Assembly (NCBI RefSeq): GCF_030013595.1
Contig: NZ_CP122768.1
DNA from: Escherichia coli
GTDB lineage: Bacteria > Pseudomonadota > Gammaproteobacteria > Enterobacterales > Enterobacteriaceae
Length of the DNA: 64,000 bases
Direction: 5' to 3' (one strand)
The notes under the pieces: model-generated
What the model was told of the DNA's origin: nothing
Seen by the model: only the letters and a program-made list of their open reading frames with translations
Databases searched by the model: none
Made by a program: the position numbers and the translations under genes
Shown: in pieces, positions 10,744 through 48,863 of the stretch
How the letters are laid out: each line of letters begins with the position of its first letter
How positions within the stretch are numbered: position 1 is the first letter of the stretch

Positions 10744-11061
10744 TCAATTTCTCCGCTGCTCTATTGCCGTAATCGCCTCCACGCGTTGTTGATGACGACC
10801 GCCTTCGTACTGCGCGCCCAGCCACGCATCCACAATCATTTTTGCCAGTTCGAGGCCAACCACTCGTGAACCAAAAGCCAGTGCAACTTCACTGGCGTAA
10901 TGCGGATAATCAGTGCGCTCTGACGGCCTGGTTTCTTTATCAATCCCCTCACTCATTGACCATGAATAAAAGGCTGGCACAGCAACGCGGAATCCTGCGG
11001 TGCCAGCGACATGACCGCCCATTGCTCCGGTACGTTTTTTAATAAAAAACACCGGTTGCAT
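10744..11061 (-). pseudogene. rpiB: Ribose-5-phosphate isomerase B remnant: RpiB-like N- and C-terminal segments with the central catalytic region missing
   Basis: 105 aa ORF with SERTDYPHYAS motif and RpiB/LacAB-like C-terminus but about 45 residues shorter than RpiB; residues upstream of the motif are in a foreign frame. Confidence 0.6.
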
Positions 11062-14833: not shown

Positions 14834-16884
14834 TGAGCGCGCTCAACTCCCTGCCATTACCGGTGGTCAGGCTGCTGGCGTTCTTTCATGAAGAGTTAAG
14901 CGAGCGGCGACCAGGCCGCGTGCCGCAGACCGTGCAACTCTGGGTAGGCTGCCTGCTGGTGATTCTGATCTCGATGACTTTTGAGATCCCTTTTGTGGCG
15001 TTATCACTGGCAGTGCTGTTTTACGGTATTCAGTCGAACGCGTTTTACACCAAATTTGTCGCGATCTTGTTTGTGGTCGCCACGATGCTGGAGATCGGCA
15101 GCCTGTTTTTGATCTACAAATGGTCATACGGCGAACCGTTGATCCGATTGATCATCGCCGGGCCGATCCTGATGGGCTGCATGTTTTTGATGCGCACCCA
15201 TCGGCTGGGACTGGTCTTTTTCGCTGTCGCCATTGTCGCCATTTACGGGCAAACCTTCCCCGCCATGCTCGACTATCCGGAAGTGGTCGTGCGCTTAACC
15301 CTGTGGTGTATCGTTGTCGGCCTCTACCCGACGTTATTGATGACGTTAATCGGCGTGCTGTGGTTTCCCAGCCGCGCTATCACGCAGATGCATCAGGCGC
15401 TTAATGATCGGCTTGATGATGCCATTAGCCACCTGACGAACAGCCTCACACCGCTACCCGAAACGTGGATTGAAAGAGAGGCGCTGGCGCTGCAAAAACT
15501 CAATGTCTTTTGCCTCGCGGACGATGCCAACTGGCGAACTCAGAGCGCATGGTGGCAAAGCTGCGTGGCAACGGTAACCTACATTTACTCGACGCTGAAT
15601 CGCTACGCTCCCACCTCTTTTGCTGATTCTCAGGCAATTATTGAATTTCGGCAAAAATTAGCCTCAGAAATCAACAAACTGCAGCATGCCATTGCCGAAG
15701 GTCAGTGCTGGCAAAGCGACTGGCGGATCAGTGAAAGTGAAGCGATGGCGGCACGGGAATGTAACCTGGAGAATATCTGCCAGACGTTATTGCAACTGGG
15801 TCAGATGGACCCGAATACGCCGCCAACGCCCGCCACCAAACCGCCATCAATGGTCGCCGACGCTTTTACCAATCCAGACTATATGCGCTACGCGGTAAAA
15901 ACGCTGCTCGCCTGTTTGATCTGTTACACCTTCTACAGCGGCGTGGACTGGGAAGGCATTCACACCTGTATGCTGACCTGCGTGATCGTCGCTAACCCAA
16001 ATGTTGGTTCGTCGTATCAGAAAATGGCGCTGCGTTTTGGCGGTGCCTTCTGCGGTGCAATTCTGGCGCTGTTATTCACGTTACTGGTCATGCCCTGGCT
16101 GGACAATATTGTCGAATTGCTATTTGTGCTGGCACCGATTTTCCTGTTGGGCGCATGGATTGCCACCAGCTCTGAACGCTCTTCTTATATCGGCACACAG
16201 ATGGTGGTCACCTTCGCGCTCGCCACGCTCGAAAACGTTTTTGGCCCGGTGTACGACCTGGTGGAAATTCGCGATCGCGCCCTGGGTATCATCATTGGTA
16301 CCGTGGTGTCCGCGGTGATTTACACCTTTGTCTGGCCTGAAAGTGAAGCGCGCACACTGCCCCAAAAACTGGCTGGCGCGCTGGGTATGTTGAGTAAAGT
16401 AATGCGGATCCCACGCCAGCAGGAAGTCACAGCTCTGCGCACTTATTTGCAAATTCGTATAGGTCTGCATGCGGCGTTTAATGCCTGTGAAGAGATGTGC
16501 CAACGCGTGGCGTTGGAGCGTCAACTGGACAGCGAAGAACGCGCTTTACTGATTGAACGTTCGCAAACGGTTATTCGTCAGGGCCGCGATATTCTTCACG
16601 CCTGGGATGCAACCTGGAACTCGGCGCAGGCGCTGGATAACGCACTACAGCCGGACAGAGCAGGTCAGTTTGCCGACGCACTGGAGAAATACGCCGCCGG
16701 TCTGGCAACCGCACTCAGCCGTTCTCCTCAAATAACGCTTGAAGAAACACCCGCCTCGCAGGCCATCCTGCCCACCTTATTAAAACAGGAGCAACACGTC
16801 TGCCAGCTTTTCGCCCGCTTGCCAGACTGGACAGCCCCGGCATTAACGCCCGCCACGGAACAGGTACAAGGAGCCACGCAATGA
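14833..16884 (+). CDS. mdtO: FUSC-family inner-membrane efflux protein MdtO
   Basis: 683 aa ORF; TAATG overlap with mdtN; multiple transmembrane segments. Confidence 0.88.
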   Translation: MSALNSLPLPVVRLLAFFHEELSERRPGRVPQTVQLWVGCLLVILISMTFEIPFVALSLAVLFYGIQSNAFYTKFVAILFVVATMLEIGSLFLIYKWSYGEPLIRLIIAGPILMGCMFLMRTHRLGLVFFAVAIVAIYGQTFPAMLDYPEVVVRLTLWCIVVGLYPTLLMTLIGVLWFPSRAITQMHQALNDRLDDAISHLTNSLTPLPETWIEREALALQKLNVFCLADDANWRTQSAWWQSCVATVTYIYSTLNRYAPTSFADSQAIIEFRQKLASEINKLQHAIAEGQCWQSDWRISESEAMAARECNLENICQTLLQLGQMDPNTPPTPATKPPSMVADAFTNPDYMRYAVKTLLACLICYTFYSGVDWEGIHTCMLTCVIVANPNVGSSYQKMALRFGGAFCGAILALLFTLLVMPWLDNIVELLFVLAPIFLLGAWIATSSERSSYIGTQMVVTFALATLENVFGPVYDLVEIRDRALGIIIGTVVSAVIYTFVWPESEARTLPQKLAGALGMLSKVMRIPRQQEVTALRTYLQIRIGLHAAFNACEEMCQRVALERQLDSEERALLIERSQTVIRQGRDILHAWDATWNSAQALDNALQPDRAGQFADALEKYAAGLATALSRSPQITLEETPASQAILPTLLKQEQHVCQLFARLPDWTAPALTPATEQVQGATQ

Positions 16885-18347
16885 TCAATCGTCAACTTTC
16901 ACGCCTGCTGTTGTGCAGCATTCTCGGCAGCACGACGCTGATTTCCGGCTGTGCCCTGGTACGTAAGGATTCTGCGCCTCATCAACAGCTCAAACCGGAA
17001 CAAATCAAACTGGCCGATGATATTCATCTTGCCAGCTCCGGTTGGCCGCAGGCGCAGTGGTGGAAACAACTCAATGACCCGCAGTTGGATGCACTGGTCC
17101 AACAGACGCTAAGTGGTTCACACACCCTCGCCGAAGCGAAACTGCGGGAAGAAAAAGCGCAGTCGCAGGCCGATTTGTTAGATACCGGTTCACAGTTGCA
17201 GGTGGCAGCGTTAGGGATGCTTAACCGCCAACGCGTCTCGGCGAACGGCTTTTTAAGCCCTTATGCGATGGATGCGCCCGCACTGGGGATGGACGGGCCG
17301 TACTATACGGAAGCCACAGTCGGTTTGTTTGCCGGACTGGATCTTGATTTGTGGGGTGTGCATCGCTCAGCGGTTGCCGCCGCCATTGGCGCGCATAATG
17401 CCGCGCTGGCAGAAACCGCAGCAGTAGAGCTATCGCTGACCACGGGCGTAGCGCAGCTTTATTACAGTATGCAGGCCAGCTATCAGATGCTCGATCTGTT
17501 AGAACAAACTCGCGATGTGATTGATTACGCGGTAAAAGCGCACCAGAGTAAAGTGGCGCACGGTCTGGAAGCGCAAGTGCCTTTCCACGGCGCGCGGGCA
17601 CAGATTCTGGCGGTCGATAAACAAATTGCTGCCGTTAAAGGGCAAATCACCGAAACGCGAGAATCTCTGCGCGCATTGATTGGCGCGGGAGCCAGCGATA
17701 TGCCGGAGATCAAACCGGTGGCATTACCGCAAGTCCAGACCGGTATTCCGGCGACACTCTCTTATGAGTTGCTCGCCAGACGCCCGGATCTGCAAGCGAT
17801 GCGCTGGTATGTTCAGGCGTCATTAGATCAGGTGGATTCCGCGCGGGCGCTGTTCTATCCGAGCTTTGATATCAAAGCGTTTTTCGGCCTGGATTCTATC
17901 CACCTGGATACCTTATTCAAAAAAACCAGTCGCCAGTTTAACTTTATCCCGGGTCTGAAATTGCCGCTGTTTGACGGTGGACGGTTGAATGCCAATCTCG
18001 AAGGCACTCGCGCCGCCAGCAACATGATGATTGAACGTTACAACCAGTCAGTGCTGAATGCGGTGCGCGACGTTGCCGTCAACGGCACGCGTCTGCAAAC
18101 GCTCAACGACGAGCGAGAGATGCAGGCTGAACGCGTGGAAGCAACGCGCTTCACCCAGCGCGCTGCCGAGGCCGCCTATCAACGCGGCTTAACCAGCCGC
18201 TTACAGGCCACTGAAGCCCGGTTGCCAGTACTTGCCGAAGAGATGTCATTACTGATGCTGGACAGCCGCCGGGTGATCCAAAGCATTCAGTTGATGAAAT
18301 CGCTGGGCGGCGGGTATCAGGCGGCTCCCGTCGTCGAGAAAAAATAA
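16881..18347 (+). CDS. mdtP: Outer-membrane efflux lipoprotein (NodT/OMF family) MdtP
   Basis: 488 aa ORF; lipoprotein signal LISGCA; ATGA overlap with mdtO. Confidence 0.88.
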   Translation: MINRQLSRLLLCSILGSTTLISGCALVRKDSAPHQQLKPEQIKLADDIHLASSGWPQAQWWKQLNDPQLDALVQQTLSGSHTLAEAKLREEKAQSQADLLDTGSQLQVAALGMLNRQRVSANGFLSPYAMDAPALGMDGPYYTEATVGLFAGLDLDLWGVHRSAVAAAIGAHNAALAETAAVELSLTTGVAQLYYSMQASYQMLDLLEQTRDVIDYAVKAHQSKVAHGLEAQVPFHGARAQILAVDKQIAAVKGQITETRESLRALIGAGASDMPEIKPVALPQVQTGIPATLSYELLARRPDLQAMRWYVQASLDQVDSARALFYPSFDIKAFFGLDSIHLDTLFKKTSRQFNFIPGLKLPLFDGGRLNANLEGTRAASNMMIERYNQSVLNAVRDVAVNGTRLQTLNDEREMQAERVEATRFTQRAAEAAYQRGLTSRLQATEARLPVLAEEMSLLMLDSRRVIQSIQLMKSLGGGYQAAPVVEKK

Positions 18348-18477
18348 AATGTCTGCCGCGTGATGGCTGTCACGCGGTATTTCGTTTCGTCACGTCAAAA
18401 CTGACGACAGCCTGTTTTTCGTCAGAGTTTTGAATAAATAGTGCCCGTAATATCAGGGAATGACCCCAAATAAAATG

Positions 18478-18494
18478 TGGCATAAAAGATGCAT
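18478..18494 (+). promoter_or_regulatory. Sigma-54 (-24/-12) promoter of fdhF
   Basis: TGGCATaaaagaTGCAT matches the TGGCAC-N5-TTGCA class; inverted repeats of TGTCACG/CGTCA type lie 60-120 bp upstream (candidate FhlA activator site). Confidence 0.6.
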
Positions 18495-18544
18495 ACTGTA
18501 GTCGAGAGCGCGTATGCGTGATTTGATTAACTGGAGCGAGACCG

Positions 18545-20692
18545 ATGAAAAAAGTCGTCACGGTTTGCCCCTATTGCGCATCAGGTTGCAAAATCAACCT
18601 GGTCGTCGATAACGGCAAAATCGTCCGGGCGGAGGCAGCGCAGGGGAAAACCAACCAGGGTACCCTGTGTCTGAAGGGTTATTATGGCTGGGACTTCATT
18701 AACGATACCCAGATCCTGACCCCGCGCCTGAAAACCCCCATGATCCGTCGCCAGCGTGGCGGCAAACTCGAACCTGTTTCCTGGGATGAGGCACTGAATT
18801 ACGTTGCCGAGCGCCTGAGCGCCATCAAAGAGAAGTACGGTCCGGATGCCATCCAGACGACCGGCTCCTCGCGTGGTACGGGTAACGAAACCAACTATGT
18901 AATGCAAAAATTTGCGCGCGCCGTTATTGGTACCAATAACGTTGACTGCTGCGCTCGTGTCTGACACGGCCCATCGGTTGCAGGTCTGCACCAATCGGTC
19001 GGTAATGGCGCAATGAGCAATGCTATTAACGAAATTGATAATACCGATTTAGTGTTCGTTTTCGGGTACAACCCGGCGGATTCCCACCCAATCGTGGCGA
19101 ATCACGTAATTAACGCTAAACGTAACGGGGCGAAAATTATCGTCTGCGATCCGCGCAAAATTGAAACCGCGCGCATTGCGGACATGCACATTGCACTGAA
19201 AAACGGCTCAAACATCGCGCTGTTGAATGCGATGGGTCATGTCATTATTGAAGAAAACCTGTACGACAAAGCGTTCGTCGCTTCCCGTACAGAAGGCTTT
19301 GAAGAGTATCGTAAAATCGTTGAAGGCTACACGCCGGAGTCGGTTGAAGATATCACCGGCGTCAGCGCCAGTGAGATTCGTCAGGCGGCACGGATGTATG
19401 CCCAGGCGAAAAGCGCCGCCATCCTGTGGGGCATGGGTGTAACCCAGTTCTACCAGGGTGTGGAAACCGTGCGTTCTCTGACCAGCCTCGCGATGCTGAC
19501 TGGTAACCTCGGTAAGCCGCATGCGGGTGTAAACCCGGTTCGTGGTCAGAACAACGTGCAGGGTGCCTGCGATATGGGCGCGCTGCCGGATACGTATCCG
19601 GGCTATCAGTACGTGAAAGATCCGGCTAACCGCGAGAAATTCGCCAAAGCCTGGGGCGTGGAAAGCCTGCCAGCGCATACCGGCTATCGCATCAGCGAGC
19701 TGCCGCACCGCGCAGCGCATGGCGAAGTGCGTGCCGCGTACATTATGGGCGAAGATCCGCTGCAAACTGACGCGGAGCTGTCGGCAGTACGTAAAGCCTT
19801 CGAAGATCTGGAACTGGTCATCGTTCAGGACATCTTTATGACCAAAACCGCGTCGGCGGCGGATGTTATTTTACCGTCAACGTCGTGGGGCGAGCATGAA
19901 GGCGTGTTTACTGCGGCTGACCGTGGCTTCCAGCGTTTCTTCAAAGCGGTTGAACCGAAGTGGGATCTGAAAACGGACTGGCAAATCATCAGTGAAATCG
20001 CCACCCGTATGGGTTATCCGATGCACTACAACAACACCCAGGAGATCTGGGATGAGTTGCGTCATCTGTGCCCGGATTTCTACGGTGCGACTTACGAGAA
20101 AATGGGCGAACTGGGCTTCATTCAGTGGCCTTGCCGCGATACTTCAGATGCCGATCAGGGGACTTCTTATCTGTTTAAAGAGAAGTTTGATACCCCGAAC
20201 GGTCTGGCGCAGTTCTTCACCTGCGACTGGGTAGCGCCAATCGACAAACTCACCGACGAGTATCCGATGGTACTGTCAACGGTGCGTGAAGTTGGTCACT
20301 ACTCTTGCCGTTCGATGACCGGTAACTGTGCGGCACTGGCAGCGCTGGCTGATGAACCTGGCTACGCACAAATCAATACCGAAGACGCCAAACGTCTGGG
20401 TATTGAAGATGAGGCATTGGTTTGGGTGCACTCGCGTAAAGGCAAAATTATCACCCGTGCGCAGGTCAGCGATCGTCCGAACAAAGGGGCGATTTATATG
20501 ACCTACCAGTGGTGGATTGGTGCCTGTAACGAGCTGGTTACCGAAAACTTAAGCCCGATTACGAAAACGCCGGAATACAAATACTGCGCCGTGCGCGTCG
20601 AGCCGATCGCCGATCAGCGCGCCGCCGAGCAGTACGTGATTGACGAGTACAACAAGTTGAAAACTCGCCTGCGCGAAGCGGCACTGGCGTAA
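18545..20692 (+). CDS. fdhF: Formate dehydrogenase H, selenocysteine-containing molybdoenzyme; in-frame TGA at 18962-18964 read as Sec
   Basis: Track ORFs 18545..18964 and 19013..20692 are in the same frame, separated only by TGA after VDCCARV; 715 aa total; N-terminal Fe-S cysteine motif CPYCASGC. Confidence 0.93.
18962..19008 (+). promoter_or_regulatory. SECIS selenocysteine-insertion stem-loop immediately 3' of the fdhF UGA
   Basis: Position directly after the in-frame UGA; exact structure boundaries not folded here. Confidence 0.7.
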
Positions 20693-20705
20693 TACAGTCC
20701 TTTCT

Positions 20706-20734
20706 ACAGCCTCCTTCCGGAGGCTGTTTTTTTA
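20706..20734 (+). terminator. Rho-independent terminator downstream of fdhF
   Basis: Hairpin acagcctcc ttcc ggaggctgt followed by a run of seven T. Confidence 0.8.
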
Positions 20735-20785
20735 TCCATTCGAACTCTTTATACTGGTTACTCCCTACCCAATCGTATTATCAAA

Positions 20786-21475
20786 ATGAAAAAAATTATC
20801 GCATTGATGTTGTTTTTGACATTCTTTGCCCACGCGAACGACTCCGAGCCTGGCAGCCAGTATTTAAAGGCAGCAGAAGCCGGGGACCGACGCGCACAAT
20901 ATTTTCTTGCCGACAGCTGGTTTAGCTCCGGCGATTTGAGCAAAGCCGAATATTGGGCACAGAAAGCCGCCGACAGCGGTGATGCTGATGCCTGCGCGCT
21001 GTTGGCGCAGATCAAAATCACCAATCCGGTCAGTCTGGACTATCCACAAGCAAAAGTTCTTGCAGAGAAAGCGGCGCAAGCGGGCAGTAAAGAAGGTGAA
21101 GTAACGCTGGCGCATATTCTGGTAAATACTCAAGCGGGTAAACCGGATTATCCAAAGGCAATTTCGCTGTTAGAAAACGCCTCGGAAGATCTGGAGAACG
21201 ACTCTGCCGTCGATGCCCAAATGCTGCTTGGTTTGATTTACGCCAACGGCGTGGGCATTAAGGCCGACGATGACAAGGCAACCTGGTATTTCAAACGCAG
21301 CTCTGCGATTTCACGAACCGGTTATTCCGAGTACTGGGCGGGAATGATGTTCTTAAACGGTGAAGAAGGTTTTATCGAGAAGAACAAACAAAAGGCGCTG
21401 CACTGGCTGAACCTGAGCTGTATGGAAGGGTTTGATACCGGGTGTGAAGAGTTTGAAAAATTAACTAACGGTTAA
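20786..21475 (+). CDS. yjcO: Sel1-repeat (TPR-like) secreted protein YjcO
   Basis: 229 aa ORF; signal peptide; repeated A-x-YW/YF-x-KAA Sel1-like units. Confidence 0.85.
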   Translation: MKKIIALMLFLTFFAHANDSEPGSQYLKAAEAGDRRAQYFLADSWFSSGDLSKAEYWAQKAADSGDADACALLAQIKITNPVSLDYPQAKVLAEKAAQAGSKEGEVTLAHILVNTQAGKPDYPKAISLLENASEDLENDSAVDAQMLLGLIYANGVGIKADDDKATWYFKRSSAISRTGYSEYWAGMMFLNGEEGFIEKNKQKALHWLNLSCMEGFDTGCEEFEKLTNG

Positions 21476-39289: not shown

Positions 39290-39450
39290 TGACATACAAT
39301 TAAAGCATCAACACCAACCGGAACCTCCACCACGTGCTCGAATGAGGTGTGTTGACGTCGGGGGAAACCCTCCTGTGTACCAGCGGGATAGAGAGAAAGA
39401 CAAAGACCGGAAAACAAACTAAAGCGCCCTTGTGGCGCTTTAGTTTTGTT
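39290..39450 (+). ncRNA. ryjA: Candidate small RNA (ryjA position) ending at a terminator hairpin that overlaps the soxR 3' end
   Basis: Strong hairpin aaactaaagcgcc / ggcgctttagttt at 39416..39446 followed by T-rich tract; remembered ryjA location between soxR and ghxP; 5' boundary is a guess. Confidence 0.35.
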
Positions 39451-39904
39451 CATCTTCCAGCAAGCGTGCGCCTGTGCCTTCTTCTCCTAAGCGGTCGCCC
39501 GGGTTACGCAATGGGCAATCACTGCGTGAAAGGCAGCCACAACCAATACATCCGTCCAGCTCGTCACGCAGCGCCACTAAGGTATGAATGCGTCGATCCA
39601 ACTCTTCTCGCCATTGGGACGAAAGCTGTTTCCACTCTTTCGCACTTAATGTATGCCCTTCGGGCAACACGCCAAATGCTTCACGAATGGTCGCCAGCGG
39701 AATGCCAATACGCTGAGCAATTTTGATGATTGCGACATATCGCAACACATCACGTTTATATCGCCGCTGATTGCCACTATTACGGATACTGCTAATCAAC
39801 CCTTTGCTTTCATAGAAATGCAGCGCCGATACCGCCACACCGCTGCGTTTTGCCACTTCGCCGGGGGTTAGCAGCGCTTTAATGCGGGGTAATTTCTTTT
39901 CCAT
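39440..39904 (-). CDS. soxR: Redox-sensing MerR-family regulator SoxR ([2Fe-2S])
   Basis: 154 aa ORF; C-terminal cysteine cluster [12 protein letters not shown]. Confidence 0.95.
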
Positions 39905-48359: not shown

Positions 48360-48863
48360 ATGAATATATCAAATGTGAATAGCAACAACACGACATCTTT
48401 ACCTGTAGAGCTAGATACACTAAATAACAAAGGTATCTCTTATGCCAAAGATTTCTCTTATGCCAAAGATCTCTTTTTATATATAGAAACACAGTTAAAA
48501 ATTGCAAAAGATTTTTGTAGACCAGGAGAGGAAGTATCAAGATCTATTGCAAATAAAGTTTTTCATGCATTTATTGATTTAGTTAACAAAATCAGAGGCA
48601 AGAAAGATTGTATGTATATTTGCACACTTTGCTGTTTTGCCGAGGAGGTTAAAGGTGATTATTCTCATTACAGAACCTTTTTATTTGATATTGGTAATCA
48701 ATATAAGGTTAAACTTACACAAAGCGGAAAAAAAGAGTTCTCTTTAACATTAGAATTTAACGATACTATAATTGAATCTCAGAAAGTCACAGGCAATAAG
48801 GCAAAGCATATTCTTGAGGATATAGAAATATTCTATCGTAACAAACCCGATACTTATTATTAA
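48360..48863 (+). CDS. AT-rich orphan protein of unknown function
   Basis: 167 aa from MNISNV with aaggag Shine-Dalgarno 8 nt upstream (track ORF starts at 48321); very AT-rich coding sequence; cysteine cluster CMYICTLCC; no recognisable family. Confidence 0.55.
   Translation: MNISNVNSNNTTSLPVELDTLNNKGISYAKDFSYAKDLFLYIETQLKIAKDFCRPGEEVSRSIANKVFHAFIDLVNKIRGKKDCMYICTLCCFAEEVKGDYSHYRTFLFDIGNQYKVKLTQSGKKEFSLTLEFNDTIIESQKVTGNKAKHILEDIEIFYRNKPDTYY

Follow-up and report, generated by a model that had tools for sequence, protein, structure and literature searches.

The in-frame UGA of Escherichia coli fdhF, its SECIS hairpin and its sigma-54 promoter as recognised from raw sequence

A mechanical list of open reading frames (ORFs) divides one formate dehydrogenase sequence in a stretch of E. 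coli DNA (64 kb, referred to throughout as the window) into two ORFs at a TGA. Does this TGA end a gene, or is it read as selenocysteine (Sec), and which of the surrounding nucleotides would then direct the decoding and the transcription of the gene? Our analysis leads, with near certainty, to the conclusion that positions 18545-20692 are E. coli fdhF, with UGA140 read as Sec by means of a SECIS element and with transcription driven by sigma-54 and FhlA. The gene identity, the in-frame UGA, the SECIS match, the constraint on the RNA and the sequence and conservation of the promoter all come from the analysis itself, and nothing in it contradicts this explanation. In bacteria, fdhF is the founding example of the programmed recoding of UGA to selenocysteine. 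The finding is therefore a textbook case that is already known, and its confirmation here adds no new biology. The features of the locus are collected in Table 1.

Table 1. Features of the fdhF locus in the window
Feature	Position	Strand	Remarks
Terminator-like hairpin TGCCGCGTGA-TGGC-TGTCACGCGGTA with T-rich tail	18354..18389	+	7 nt past the mdtP stop; inverted repeat I2
Palindrome CGTCA-AAAC-TGACG (CGTCAAAACTGACG), candidate FhlA upstream activating site 1	18393..18406		
Second conserved block CCTGTTTTTCGTCAG, candidate FhlA site 2	18411..18425		TTTCGTCAG conserved across genera
Sigma-54 (-24/-12) promoter TGGCATAAAAGATGCA	18478..18493	+	GG at 18479-18480, GC at 18491-18492
Shine-Dalgarno-like GGAG	18533..18536	+	8 nt before the fdhF ATG; read off the sequence
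fdhF CDS	18545..20692	+	715 residues and stop; formate dehydrogenase H, molybdopterin/[4Fe-4S] selenoprotein
SECIS element, full Rfam span	18957..19011	+	Rfam RF01988 SECIS_2
In-frame UGA, codon 140	18962..18964	+	predicted to be decoded as selenocysteine
Upper 17-nt SECIS hairpin GGUUGCAGGUCUGCACC	18976..18992	+	nt 15-31, counting from the U of UGA
Intrinsic terminator-like hairpin ACAGCCTCC-TTCC-GGAGGCTGT with TTTTTTT	20706..20737	+	14 nt past the fdhF stop

The ORF listing gives, on the plus strand, an ORF of 139 amino acids (18545-18964) that ends in VDCCARV followed by TGA, and an ORF of 559 amino acids (19013-20692). Because 18545 and 19013 both leave a remainder of 2 on division by 3, the two ORFs share a frame, as an earlier sequence-only reading of this DNA had described. 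Straight translation of 18545-20692 on the plus strand yields 716 codons with a single internal stop, the TGA of codon 140, and no frameshift was found in this interval, which bears out the claim that the interruption is a simple in-frame TGA. The TGA is directly followed by HGPSVAGLHQSVGNGAMSNAINE in the same frame. Since the translation runs straight through with only that one internal stop, the apparent start at 19013 is simply the next ATG downstream in that frame, and this ATG is Met157 of the continuous FdhF protein. A genome-wide DNA pattern scan returned 120 loci, from which 59 without similarity to FdhF (chance matches) were dropped; the 61 FdhF homologues that were kept (56-99.7% identity) have TGA at the equivalent aligned position. 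The scan pattern itself demanded a TGA, so that this set demonstrates a widespread rather than a universal UGA, and the frequency of Cys in place of Sec is not derivable from it. Downstream of the gene, the hairpin at 20706-20737 consists of 9 pairs (6 G-C) with a loop of 4 and the tail TTTTTTTATCC in the terminator scan, which suggests that fdhF is monocistronic.

Residues 1-715 of the translated protein are identical to the crystallised E. coli formate dehydrogenase H (FDH-H; PDB codes: 1aa6, 1fdi, 1fdo, 2iv2 and 7z0t). Codon 140 was entered as C in the protein query against PDB, and the FDH-H sequences there have a non-standard residue, written X, at position 140, in agreement with the Sec that had been expected at this position from alignment with FdhF. 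The NCBIfam equivalog TIGR01591 matches residues 6-685 over profile positions 1-672 of 672 with 1095.7 bits (cutoff 666.25), and all other NCBIfam families score under their own cutoffs. The identity with FDH-H and the score above the curated cutoff confirm the earlier assignment of the gene to fdhF. Cys8, Cys11, Cys15, Cys42, UGA140, His141 and Arg333 are all present in the translation. Following the crystal-structure literature on FDH-H, we take Sec140-His141 and Arg333 to form the active site and the four cysteines to be the ligands of the N-terminal [4Fe-4S] cluster. The selenium, the Mo-bis-MGD and the formate oxidation activity are known for the identical K-12 protein. At the DNA level, an annotated E. 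coli fdhF matches the locus with 100% identity, far more than chance would give, and 5419 of the 5426 complete E. coli genomes contain this locus. The window is collinear with the E. coli chromosome NZ_CM149870.1 (17 mismatches in 49,555 nt, 99.97% identical). RefSeq annotates a single fdhF CDS of 2148 nt (WP_001300547.1) at exactly 18545-20692. The warning that gene callers blind to recoding would truncate fdhF thus holds for the mechanical ORF list, which splits the gene, and not for current pipelines, which do not truncate it.

The Rfam family RF01988 (SECIS_2) matches 18957-19011 over the full model (1-55, no truncation) with 87.1 bits against a gathering threshold of 70 (E = 7.1e-19), a score that is partly circular, since the RF01988 seed probably contains this fdhF sequence. 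Besides RF01988, only one other Rfam family gave a match in the window. The subtype SECIS_3 (RF01989) was rejected, with 35.8 bits under a threshold of 63 bits. In the SECIS_2 layout, 18957-18961 pair with 19007-19011 to form a basal 5-bp helix around the UGA, and the main stem-loop spans 18964-19003; the minimum-energy fold of the 55-mer is exactly the Rfam SECIS_2 structure. The apical hairpin begins 11 nt after the UGA, with the bulged U17 at 18978 and the loop residues G23 and U24 at 18984-18985. Nucleotides 15-31, U17, G23 and U24 have roles in SelB binding (PMC8659212), and both SelB binding and Sec insertion have been shown experimentally for this exact RNA (PMC8659212, PMC4513850). The basal helix lies outside the classical 40-nt SECIS, and its pairing is kept in 97.6% of alignment cells. 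We consider it a rather speculative idea that this helix has a separate role, for example in timing the unfolding of the hairpin or in limiting the access of release factor 2 (RF2).

The folding energy of the SECIS was compared with that of dinucleotide-shuffled sequences at three lengths (200 shuffles each), and the z scores of -0.49 (49 nt), -1.23 (55 nt) and -0.67 (17 nt) show no significant stability of the hairpin beyond shuffled sequence; 25-54 of the 200 shuffles fold as stably. A hairpin 3´ of the UGA, as had been predicted, does form and is matched by the Rfam model, but its energy alone is indistinguishable from that of the shuffles. Folding energy was therefore rejected as a test for the SECIS, and comparative analysis was used instead. 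The real evidence for the SECIS lies in the covariance-model score, the suppressed synonymous variation and the covariation.

Synonymous variation was assessed across the 61 UGA-containing homologues. The normalised synonymous codon entropy is 0.22 at codons +1 to +13 and 0.71 elsewhere (Mann-Whitney p = 8.7e-7), and the 13-codon windows with the lowest entropy begin at the UGA. At codons +6 to +9, a single codon is used in every sequence that has the majority amino acid; the Ala, Gly and Leu at +6 to +8 are each encoded by one codon in 56-61 sequences, in contrast to equally conserved Gly, Ser and Ala positions outside the region, which use 3-4 codons (1.1-2.0 bits). A further dip in entropy occurs at +15, where the codon GGC is unusually fixed.

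The proposed SECIS pairs are formed in 90.7% of the cells among 34 distinct homologous sequences, compared with 22-47% in slid-partner controls, and none of 500 shuffles reaches the observed covariation score. None of the 34 has a change at U17 or in the GGUC loop. In the U17-bulged register, the pair U18-A29 is replaced by A-U in 7 sequences; G15-C31 is replaced by U-A in 7 and by U-G in 1. This register is favoured since it contains more cells changed on both sides than the U18-bulged register (16 versus 9). Compensatory changes occur at two apical pairs and double changes at three pairs, mostly in one clade; the compensatory changes stem essentially from the Pasteurellaceae and hence represent few independent events. 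The Pasteurellaceae homologues encode the peptide SVTGLLK, and their nucleotide changes are pairwise compensatory. Homologues from Hafnia, Edwardsiella, Proteus and Morganella carry CAGCG instead of CACCA, from which an unbulged 6-bp apical stem is predicted. That Hafnia, Proteus and Edwardsiella in fact use such a stem is a tentative notion to which we give little weight; if true, it would imply a co-evolved SelB recognition in those genera.

The selC, selAB and selD genes lie outside the 64-kb window, in which a tRNA search found no tRNA-Sec, and the Sec machinery was therefore checked at the species level. The tRNA-Sec gene (selC) is present in 5424 of 5426 complete E. coli genomes, and selB-selA and selD are present in 5425 each, so that selABCD, which had been expected elsewhere in the genome, are each found in at least 5424 of these genomes. 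Recoding of the fdhF UGA has an efficiency of 30-40% in vivo, with competition by RF2 (PMC4513850).

Upstream of the gene, TGGCAT-AAAAGA-TGCAT occupies 18478-18494, which is usually written as TGGCAT-N5-ATGCA (GG-N10-GC). Its TGCA starts 55 nt upstream of the ATG, and the sigma-54 promoter that had been placed about 55 nt upstream is accordingly correct in position and matches a published ChIP-seq motif exactly: the E. coli K-12 sigma-54 ChIP-seq site OS41, GTGGCATAAAAGATGCA, which is assigned to fdhF at a distance of 41 (PMC4591121), contains the window's TGGCATAAAAGATGCA in full. Transcription would start near 18504, 41 nt before the ATG. The pattern TGGCAY-N5-WTGCW has its sole match in the 64 kb at 18478-18493. 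With 0.55 matches expected, this count is not significant and was rejected as evidence; the case for the promoter thus rests on its position, its identity with the ChIP-seq site and its conservation. The RpoN matrix ranks the promoter 3rd of about 128,000 window positions. Salmonella has TGGCATAAAACATGCATA upstream of fdhF, and its fdhF is sigma-54-dependent with a matching site (PMC3844500). Of 54 homologue upstream regions examined, 38 have the element; TGGCA and TGCA (GG/GC) do not vary among them, and the spacer does. The same conservation is seen in a promoter-anchored alignment of 35 upstream regions including the window.

Several inverted repeats lie further upstream (18354-18433) and had been put forward as a possible FhlA activator site. 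The hairpin at 18354-18379 (11 pairs, 6 G-C, loop of 4, tail TTTCGTTTCG in the terminator scan) is terminator-like and shows no conservation in the cross-genus alignment of 35 upstream regions. It looks like the mdtP terminator and is most likely not an FhlA site; with its tail to 18389, it bounds the fdhF control region on the upstream side. The candidate activator site is the conserved palindrome at 18393-18406, which is centred about 105 nt upstream of the presumed transcription start. In 32 of the 35 regions its two arms, CGTCA and TGACG, hardly vary, in contrast to the flanks, which diverge. The palindrome is the best intergenic match (8.6 bits) to a published 14-nt FhlA matrix (PMC7658346). 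As this match ranks only 64th among about 128,000 window positions, the matrix alone cannot establish the site. The block at 18411-18425 matches the FhlA matrix as a half-site only (5.1 bits, minus strand) and contains TTTCGTCA, a direct repeat (D5) of 18385-18392 in two copies with a spacing of 32. Between the upstream gene and the promoter, sharp conservation is confined to CGTCA-N4-TGACG and the TTTCGTCAG block. FhlA is reported to bind upstream of fdhF (PMC11291172), and the conserved palindrome is the plausible site.

The TGA could be a genuine nonsense mutation, in which case fdhF would be a pseudogene, or the interval would contain two genes, one for an N-terminal fragment of 139 aa and one for a C-terminal protein of 559 aa begun at ATG 19013. 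The two ORFs of the mechanical list are compatible with this, UGA usually means stop, and some of the ribosomes at the fdhF UGA are indeed terminated by RF2 (PMC4513850). However, homologues down to 56% identity have TGA at the equivalent codon in a frame that is intact before and after it, the non-standard residue of the crystallised full-length protein is exactly at 140, the catalytic His141 comes immediately after the UGA, a SECIS element follows, and ATG 19013 is explained as Met157 with no need for a ribosome-binding context. We consider a nonsense mutation exceedingly improbable; the frameshift, pseudogene and two-gene readings were rejected on the single-TGA frame, the full-length PDB identity and the TGA-bearing homologues. 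Recoding of the UGA is thus preferred. The nucleotide conservation 3´ of it might still reflect only protein constraint on the active-site loop U-H-G-P-S-V-A-G-L-H, with an incidental hairpin, in keeping with the high conservation of the peptide around Sec140 and with a folding energy no better than that of shuffles. Protein constraint cannot account for the loss of synonymous variation at +6 to +8 (p = 8.7e-7), the amino acid changes in the SVTGLLK peptide of the Pasteurellaceae come with pairwise compensatory nucleotide changes, and the covariance-model score exceeds the curated threshold. The chance that the hairpin is incidental is vanishingly small, and selection on the SECIS RNA is the reading that we retain.

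More weight, within the range of the unlikely, is given to the possibility that the upstream inverted repeats are all terminator or chance repeats and that FhlA binds elsewhere. The strongest hairpin (18354-18379) is indeed terminator-like and not conserved, and 63 window positions outscore the palindrome with the FhlA matrix. Against this, the palindrome and the TTTCGTCAG block are the only islands that are sharply conserved across many genera, their position at about -85 to -105 would be usual for an enhancer, and no intergenic position matches the FhlA matrix better than the palindrome. FhlA binding at the palindrome is the reading that is carried forward.

The following course of events would combine these features. 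Established knowledge of this system supplies the insertion of Sec, the binding of SelB, that of FhlA to the bases named, and the start of transcription. FdhF is the subunit of the formate hydrogenlyase complex that oxidises formate. Transcription is expected to proceed from the sigma-54 promoter at 18478-18493 and to require FhlA, the formate-responsive enhancer-binding protein. The most likely places for FhlA to bind are the CGTCA-N4-TGACG palindrome and the TTTCGTCA repeat, some 85-105 nt upstream of the start; the intrinsic terminator after fdhF would end the transcription unit. When a ribosome nears the UGA, the downstream mRNA would fold into the SECIS hairpin, whose apical 17 nt (18976-18992) would bind the elongation factor SelB through the bulged U17 and the loop residues G23 and U24. 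SelB, competing with RF2, would then deliver Sec-tRNA(Sec), the selC product charged via SelA and SelD, to the A site, and the selenocysteine inserted at position 140 would ligate the molybdenum cofactor.

Raw sequence alone sufficed to recognise the recoding event, the cis element that belongs to it and the alternative-sigma promoter, which makes the locus a useful positive control. The discriminating tests are covariance models and synonymous-site suppression, whereas folding energy does not discriminate. An annotation should join the two apparent ORFs in a single CDS that carries a translation exception at codon 140, which is what RefSeq does.

Compared with known systems, the window shares with the fdhF-type SelB-binding hairpin of RF01988 the start at the UGA, the apical nt 15-31, the bulged U17 and the GGUC loop with G23 and U24, and there are no differences. 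The K-12 fdhF gene (b4079) encodes a protein identical to that of the window over 715 residues including the position of Sec140, has mdtP and yjcO as neighbours as in the window, and carries the same sigma-54 motif in its ChIP-seq site. Nothing of substance differs; the strain behind the window is an E. coli other than K-12, closest to NZ_CM149870.1. Relative to the GTDB E. coli representative, the SECIS region has only synonymous changes (CGT versus CGC at codon 138 and AAT versus AAC at codon 154). E. coli FdnG and FdoG, Desulfovibrio FdhA and the FdhF of HDCR share the molybdopterin oxidoreductase fold family and the Sec-His motif with the fdhF product, and the PDB matches include other Sec formate dehydrogenases (1kqf, 1h0h and 7qv7). 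Those enzymes are periplasmic, membrane-linked or in other complexes and are longer (about 1000 aa), and the window's FdhF scores far under the cutoffs of their NCBIfam profiles (for example, TIGR01553 with 249 bits versus 814). The promoters of the FhlA/sigma-54 formate regulon (hyc, hyp, hydN-hypF and fdhF) have GG-N10-GC and upstream palindromes like TGWC-N6-GWCA in common with the window. The window's palindrome has an outer C and G (CGTC...GACG) where the regulon consensus has T and A, and its second candidate FhlA site, unlike the consensus, is a half-site only by the matrix.

Read straight through, fdhF (18545–20692) comprises 716 codons with one internal stop, the TGA of codon 140 (18962–18964), which is directly followed by HGPSVAGLHQSVGNGAMSNAINE... 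The two same-frame ORFs that the sequence-only reading described as split by a TGA after VDCCARV are exactly as claimed (see table). The frame is uninterrupted across codon 140 and continuous translation of 18545–20692 revealed no frameshift; a frameshift was one of two observations that, in that reading, would count against it. Because the frame runs on past the TGA, the ATG that opens ORF 2 is merely the next one downstream of the stop, Met157. Once residue 140 is filled in, residues 1–715 of the product are identical to formate dehydrogenase H (FDH-H; PDB codes 1aa6, 1fdi, 1fdo, 2iv2 and 7z0t), and the TGA codon aligns with the 'X' deposited at residue 140, in agreement with the selenocysteine (Sec) predicted at this position. 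Among molybdoenzyme families in NCBIfam, only TIGR01591, the equivalog for formate dehydrogenase subunit alpha, reaches its cutoff (1095.7 bits, 666.25 required). Sec140 would coordinate the molybdenum in the active site. The N-terminal cysteines 8, 11, 15 and 42, His141 and Arg333 are all present, and would carry the roles described for them in the FDH-H structural literature.

Features of the fdhF region (window positions)
Feature	Position	Strand	Remark
Terminator-like repeat and T-rich tail	18354–18379 plus tail		7 nt past the mdtP stop codon
Conserved island 1, palindrome CGTCA-AAAC-TGACG	18393–18406
Conserved island 2, TTTCGTCAG	within 18411–18425
Sigma-54 promoter TGGCATAAAAGATGCA	18478–18493	+	sole TGGCAY-N5-WTGCW match in the window
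ORF 1	18545–18964	+	139 aa, ends VDCCARV
ORF 2	19013–20692	+	559 aa, frame shared with ORF 1
Terminator-like hairpin with T7 tail	20706–20737		14 nt beyond the fdhF stop codon

Of 5426 complete E. coli genomes, 5419 have the locus. The DNA at 18300–20800 is 100% identical to that of E. coli strain HCP5S3_I2, whose chromosome is collinear with the window's initial 49.6 kb (17 mismatches, 0 indels); the gene order there is phn, yjcS, mdtNOP, fdhF, yjcO, gltP, nrf, acs. The gene is K-12 fdhF itself in another strain, more than a relative, and the hairpin downstream of its stop codon suggests a monocistronic transcript. Gene callers that ignore recoding were expected to truncate fdhF, but this does not hold for current pipelines: RefSeq has a single 2148-nt CDS at exactly 18545–20692, which indicates that modern annotation already handles the recoding. 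Elsewhere, a short 318-nt RpiB/LacA/LacB-family CDS (10744–11061, minus strand) is the sole gene between yjdP and yjcS, a position presumably occupied in K-12 by rpiB, rpiR and the als (allose) operon; a deletion may have left an rpiB remnant in this strain. Between aphA and tyrB, RefSeq annotates a partial 'hypothetical protein' pseudogene without a C-terminus (48360–48722, plus strand) in the matching genome.

The SECIS hairpin anticipated 3´ of the UGA is recovered by Rfam SECIS_2 (RF01988), which matches 18957–19011 end to end (87.1 bits, gathering 70, E = 7e-19) and is one of just two Rfam matches at the gathering threshold in all 64 kb; the minimum-energy fold of this 55-mer is the same as the Rfam consensus structure. 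The SECIS_3 subtype is sub-threshold (35.8 bits against 63). The other Rfam family in the window is sraL, an Hfq-binding sRNA (RF01408; 39307–39447, plus strand; full-length match, 153 bits against a gathering threshold of 39), the 3´ end of which overlaps the 3´ end of soxR (39440–39904, minus strand) by a few bases. Hairpin stability had been proposed as a check on the SECIS. The hairpin does form, but its energy is no proof, with z-scores against dinucleotide shuffles of −0.49 (49 nt), −1.23 (55 nt) and −0.67 (17-nt upper hairpin); folding stability by itself is a weak test. Because stability alone settles nothing and the SECIS_2 seed probably includes this classic sequence too, evidence independent of both was sought among homologues.

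One genome per species was scanned with a degenerate coding pattern of C-A-R-V-UGA-H-G, leaving the sequence 3´ of the pattern unconstrained. The scan yielded 120 loci, 61 of which are true FdhF homologues with an in-frame TGA (56–99.7% identity over 339 residues examined), mainly from Enterobacterales and Pasteurellaceae, plus one from Coriobacteriales. Codons +6 to +9 (GCA GGU CUG CAC), counted from the UGA, are represented by one codon only wherever the majority amino acid is present, in contrast to equally conserved Gly, Ser and Ala positions elsewhere, which use 3–4 codons. Normalised codon entropy is 0.22 at codons +1 to +13 and 0.71 outside (Mann-Whitney p = 8.7e-7), and within a 101-codon span the 13-codon windows of lowest entropy start at codons 0, +1 and −1. 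Protein-level selection cannot explain this drop in synonymous variation right after the UGA.

The pairing is conserved as well. Across 34 distinct 55-mers, standard pairs occupy about 90% of cells, compared with 22–49% after a shift of the 3´ partners by 1–3 columns, and the observed covariation score is reached by none of 500 column shuffles. A register with U17 bulged (numbered from the U of UGA) fits better than Rfam's U18-bulged register and adds one compensatory pair, U18-A29, which becomes A-U in 7 sequences; G15-C31 is replaced by U-A (7 sequences) or U-G (1 sequence). Most of the double changes are from Pasteurellaceae, so that independent events are few. None of the 34 sequences departs from U17 (18978) or from the GGUC loop (18983–18986), which holds G23 and U24. 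The aligned homologues show that purifying selection acts on the RNA itself in the element directly 3´ of the UGA.

Nine homologues, of Proteus/Morganella type (loci L030, L097, L112, L117, L072 and L103) or from Hafnia/Edwardsiella (L053, L050 and L067), have CAGCG(A/U) where the 3´ strand of the apical stem otherwise reads CACCA(A/G); this replaces His-Gln by Gln-Arg and breaks the G16-C30 pair. They are predicted to form an uninterrupted 6-bp stem, GUUGCA/UGCAGC, without a bulged U17, although the U17 base and the GGUC loop are kept; these homologues may use a variant mode of SelB recognition. Pluralibacter gergoviae has two distinct UGA-containing paralogues on two contigs of one genome (L027 and L028; 86.5% and 94.1% identity to the E. 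coli protein), both with an intact fdhF-type SECIS, and only L028 has a sigma-54 element within 230 nt upstream.

The proposed sigma-54-type promoter is supported. The single consensus match is not significant as a count (0.55 expected by chance); a 186-site RpoN matrix ranks the site 3rd among about 128,000 positions. It lies wholly within the K-12 sigma-54 ChIP-seq motif for fdhF, GTGGCATAAAAGATGCA, whose distance of 41 to the gene (PMC4591121) places the inferred transcription start near 18504. In Salmonella, fdhF carries TGGCATAAAACATGCATA upstream and depends on sigma-54 and FhlA (PMC3844500). The element is present in 38 of 54 homologue upstream regions examined, with TGGCA and TGCA invariant and the spacer variable. 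An imperfect inverted repeat of 13 nt (18484–18496/18512–18524; 77% complementary) links the −12 region of the fdhF promoter to the early 5´ leader; as this leader lacks cross-genus conservation, chance is the probable explanation. The top two RpoN-matrix matches, 16790–16805 (minus strand, 14.9 bits) and 26957–26972 (plus strand, 14.0 bits), score above the fdhF promoter and, by annotated coordinates, are antisense inside mdtO near the mdtO-mdtP overlap and inside nrfC, respectively. The K-12 ChIP-seq paper (PMC4591121) does not give the former sequence in its main text; each of the two is a chance match or else an unlisted sigma-54 site within a gene. At rank 6, TGGCATGATTCTTGTA (55998–56013, minus strand) is identical to the motif published for the pspG promoter from sigma-54 ChIP-seq (OS40 in PMC4591121) and is a second genuine sigma-54 promoter.

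Inverted repeats further upstream had been put forward as a possible FhlA site; they fall into two classes, a terminator-like repeat and a palindrome that is a candidate FhlA site. Promoter-anchored alignment of 35 upstream regions revealed two sharply conserved islands, including the palindrome, and no cross-genus conservation of the terminator-like repeat. TTTCGTCA of island 2 is repeated at 18385–18392, 32 nt away. Against the 14-nt FhlA matrix, TGWC-N6-GWCA (PMC7658346), the palindrome is the best intergenic match (8.6 bits), albeit only at rank 64 across the window; the second block provides no more than a half-site. Conservation, together with locations about −105 and −86 relative to the inferred start, makes assignment of both blocks to FhlA plausible.

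The window contains no tRNA gene, as expected because the sel genes sit elsewhere on the chromosome. The suggested check for selABCD was made at species level: of 5426 complete E. coli genomes, 5424 have tRNA-Sec, 5425 have selB-selA and 5425 have selD. From established knowledge, formate-activated FhlA would drive open-complex formation at the sigma-54 promoter of fdhF (PMC11291172); the apical SECIS hairpin would be bound by SelB-GTP-Sec-tRNA(Sec), which would compete with RF2 at the UGA and deliver Sec there. Recoding of the UGA in vivo is ~30–40% efficient (PMC4513850).

The sequence-only interpretation is supported, with corrections to the distinction between terminator and activator site, the value of the stability test and the pipeline annotation. 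The case is already known, and all the testable defining features of FdhF, an fdhF-type SECIS and a sigma-54 promoter are present. The finding is a good positive control. The published SECIS is a 40-nt element, of which the upper 17 nt (15–31, 11 nt from the UGA) are essential and U17, G23 and U24 are fixed SelB contacts (PMC8659212); the element at 18957–19011 agrees exactly with this anatomy.
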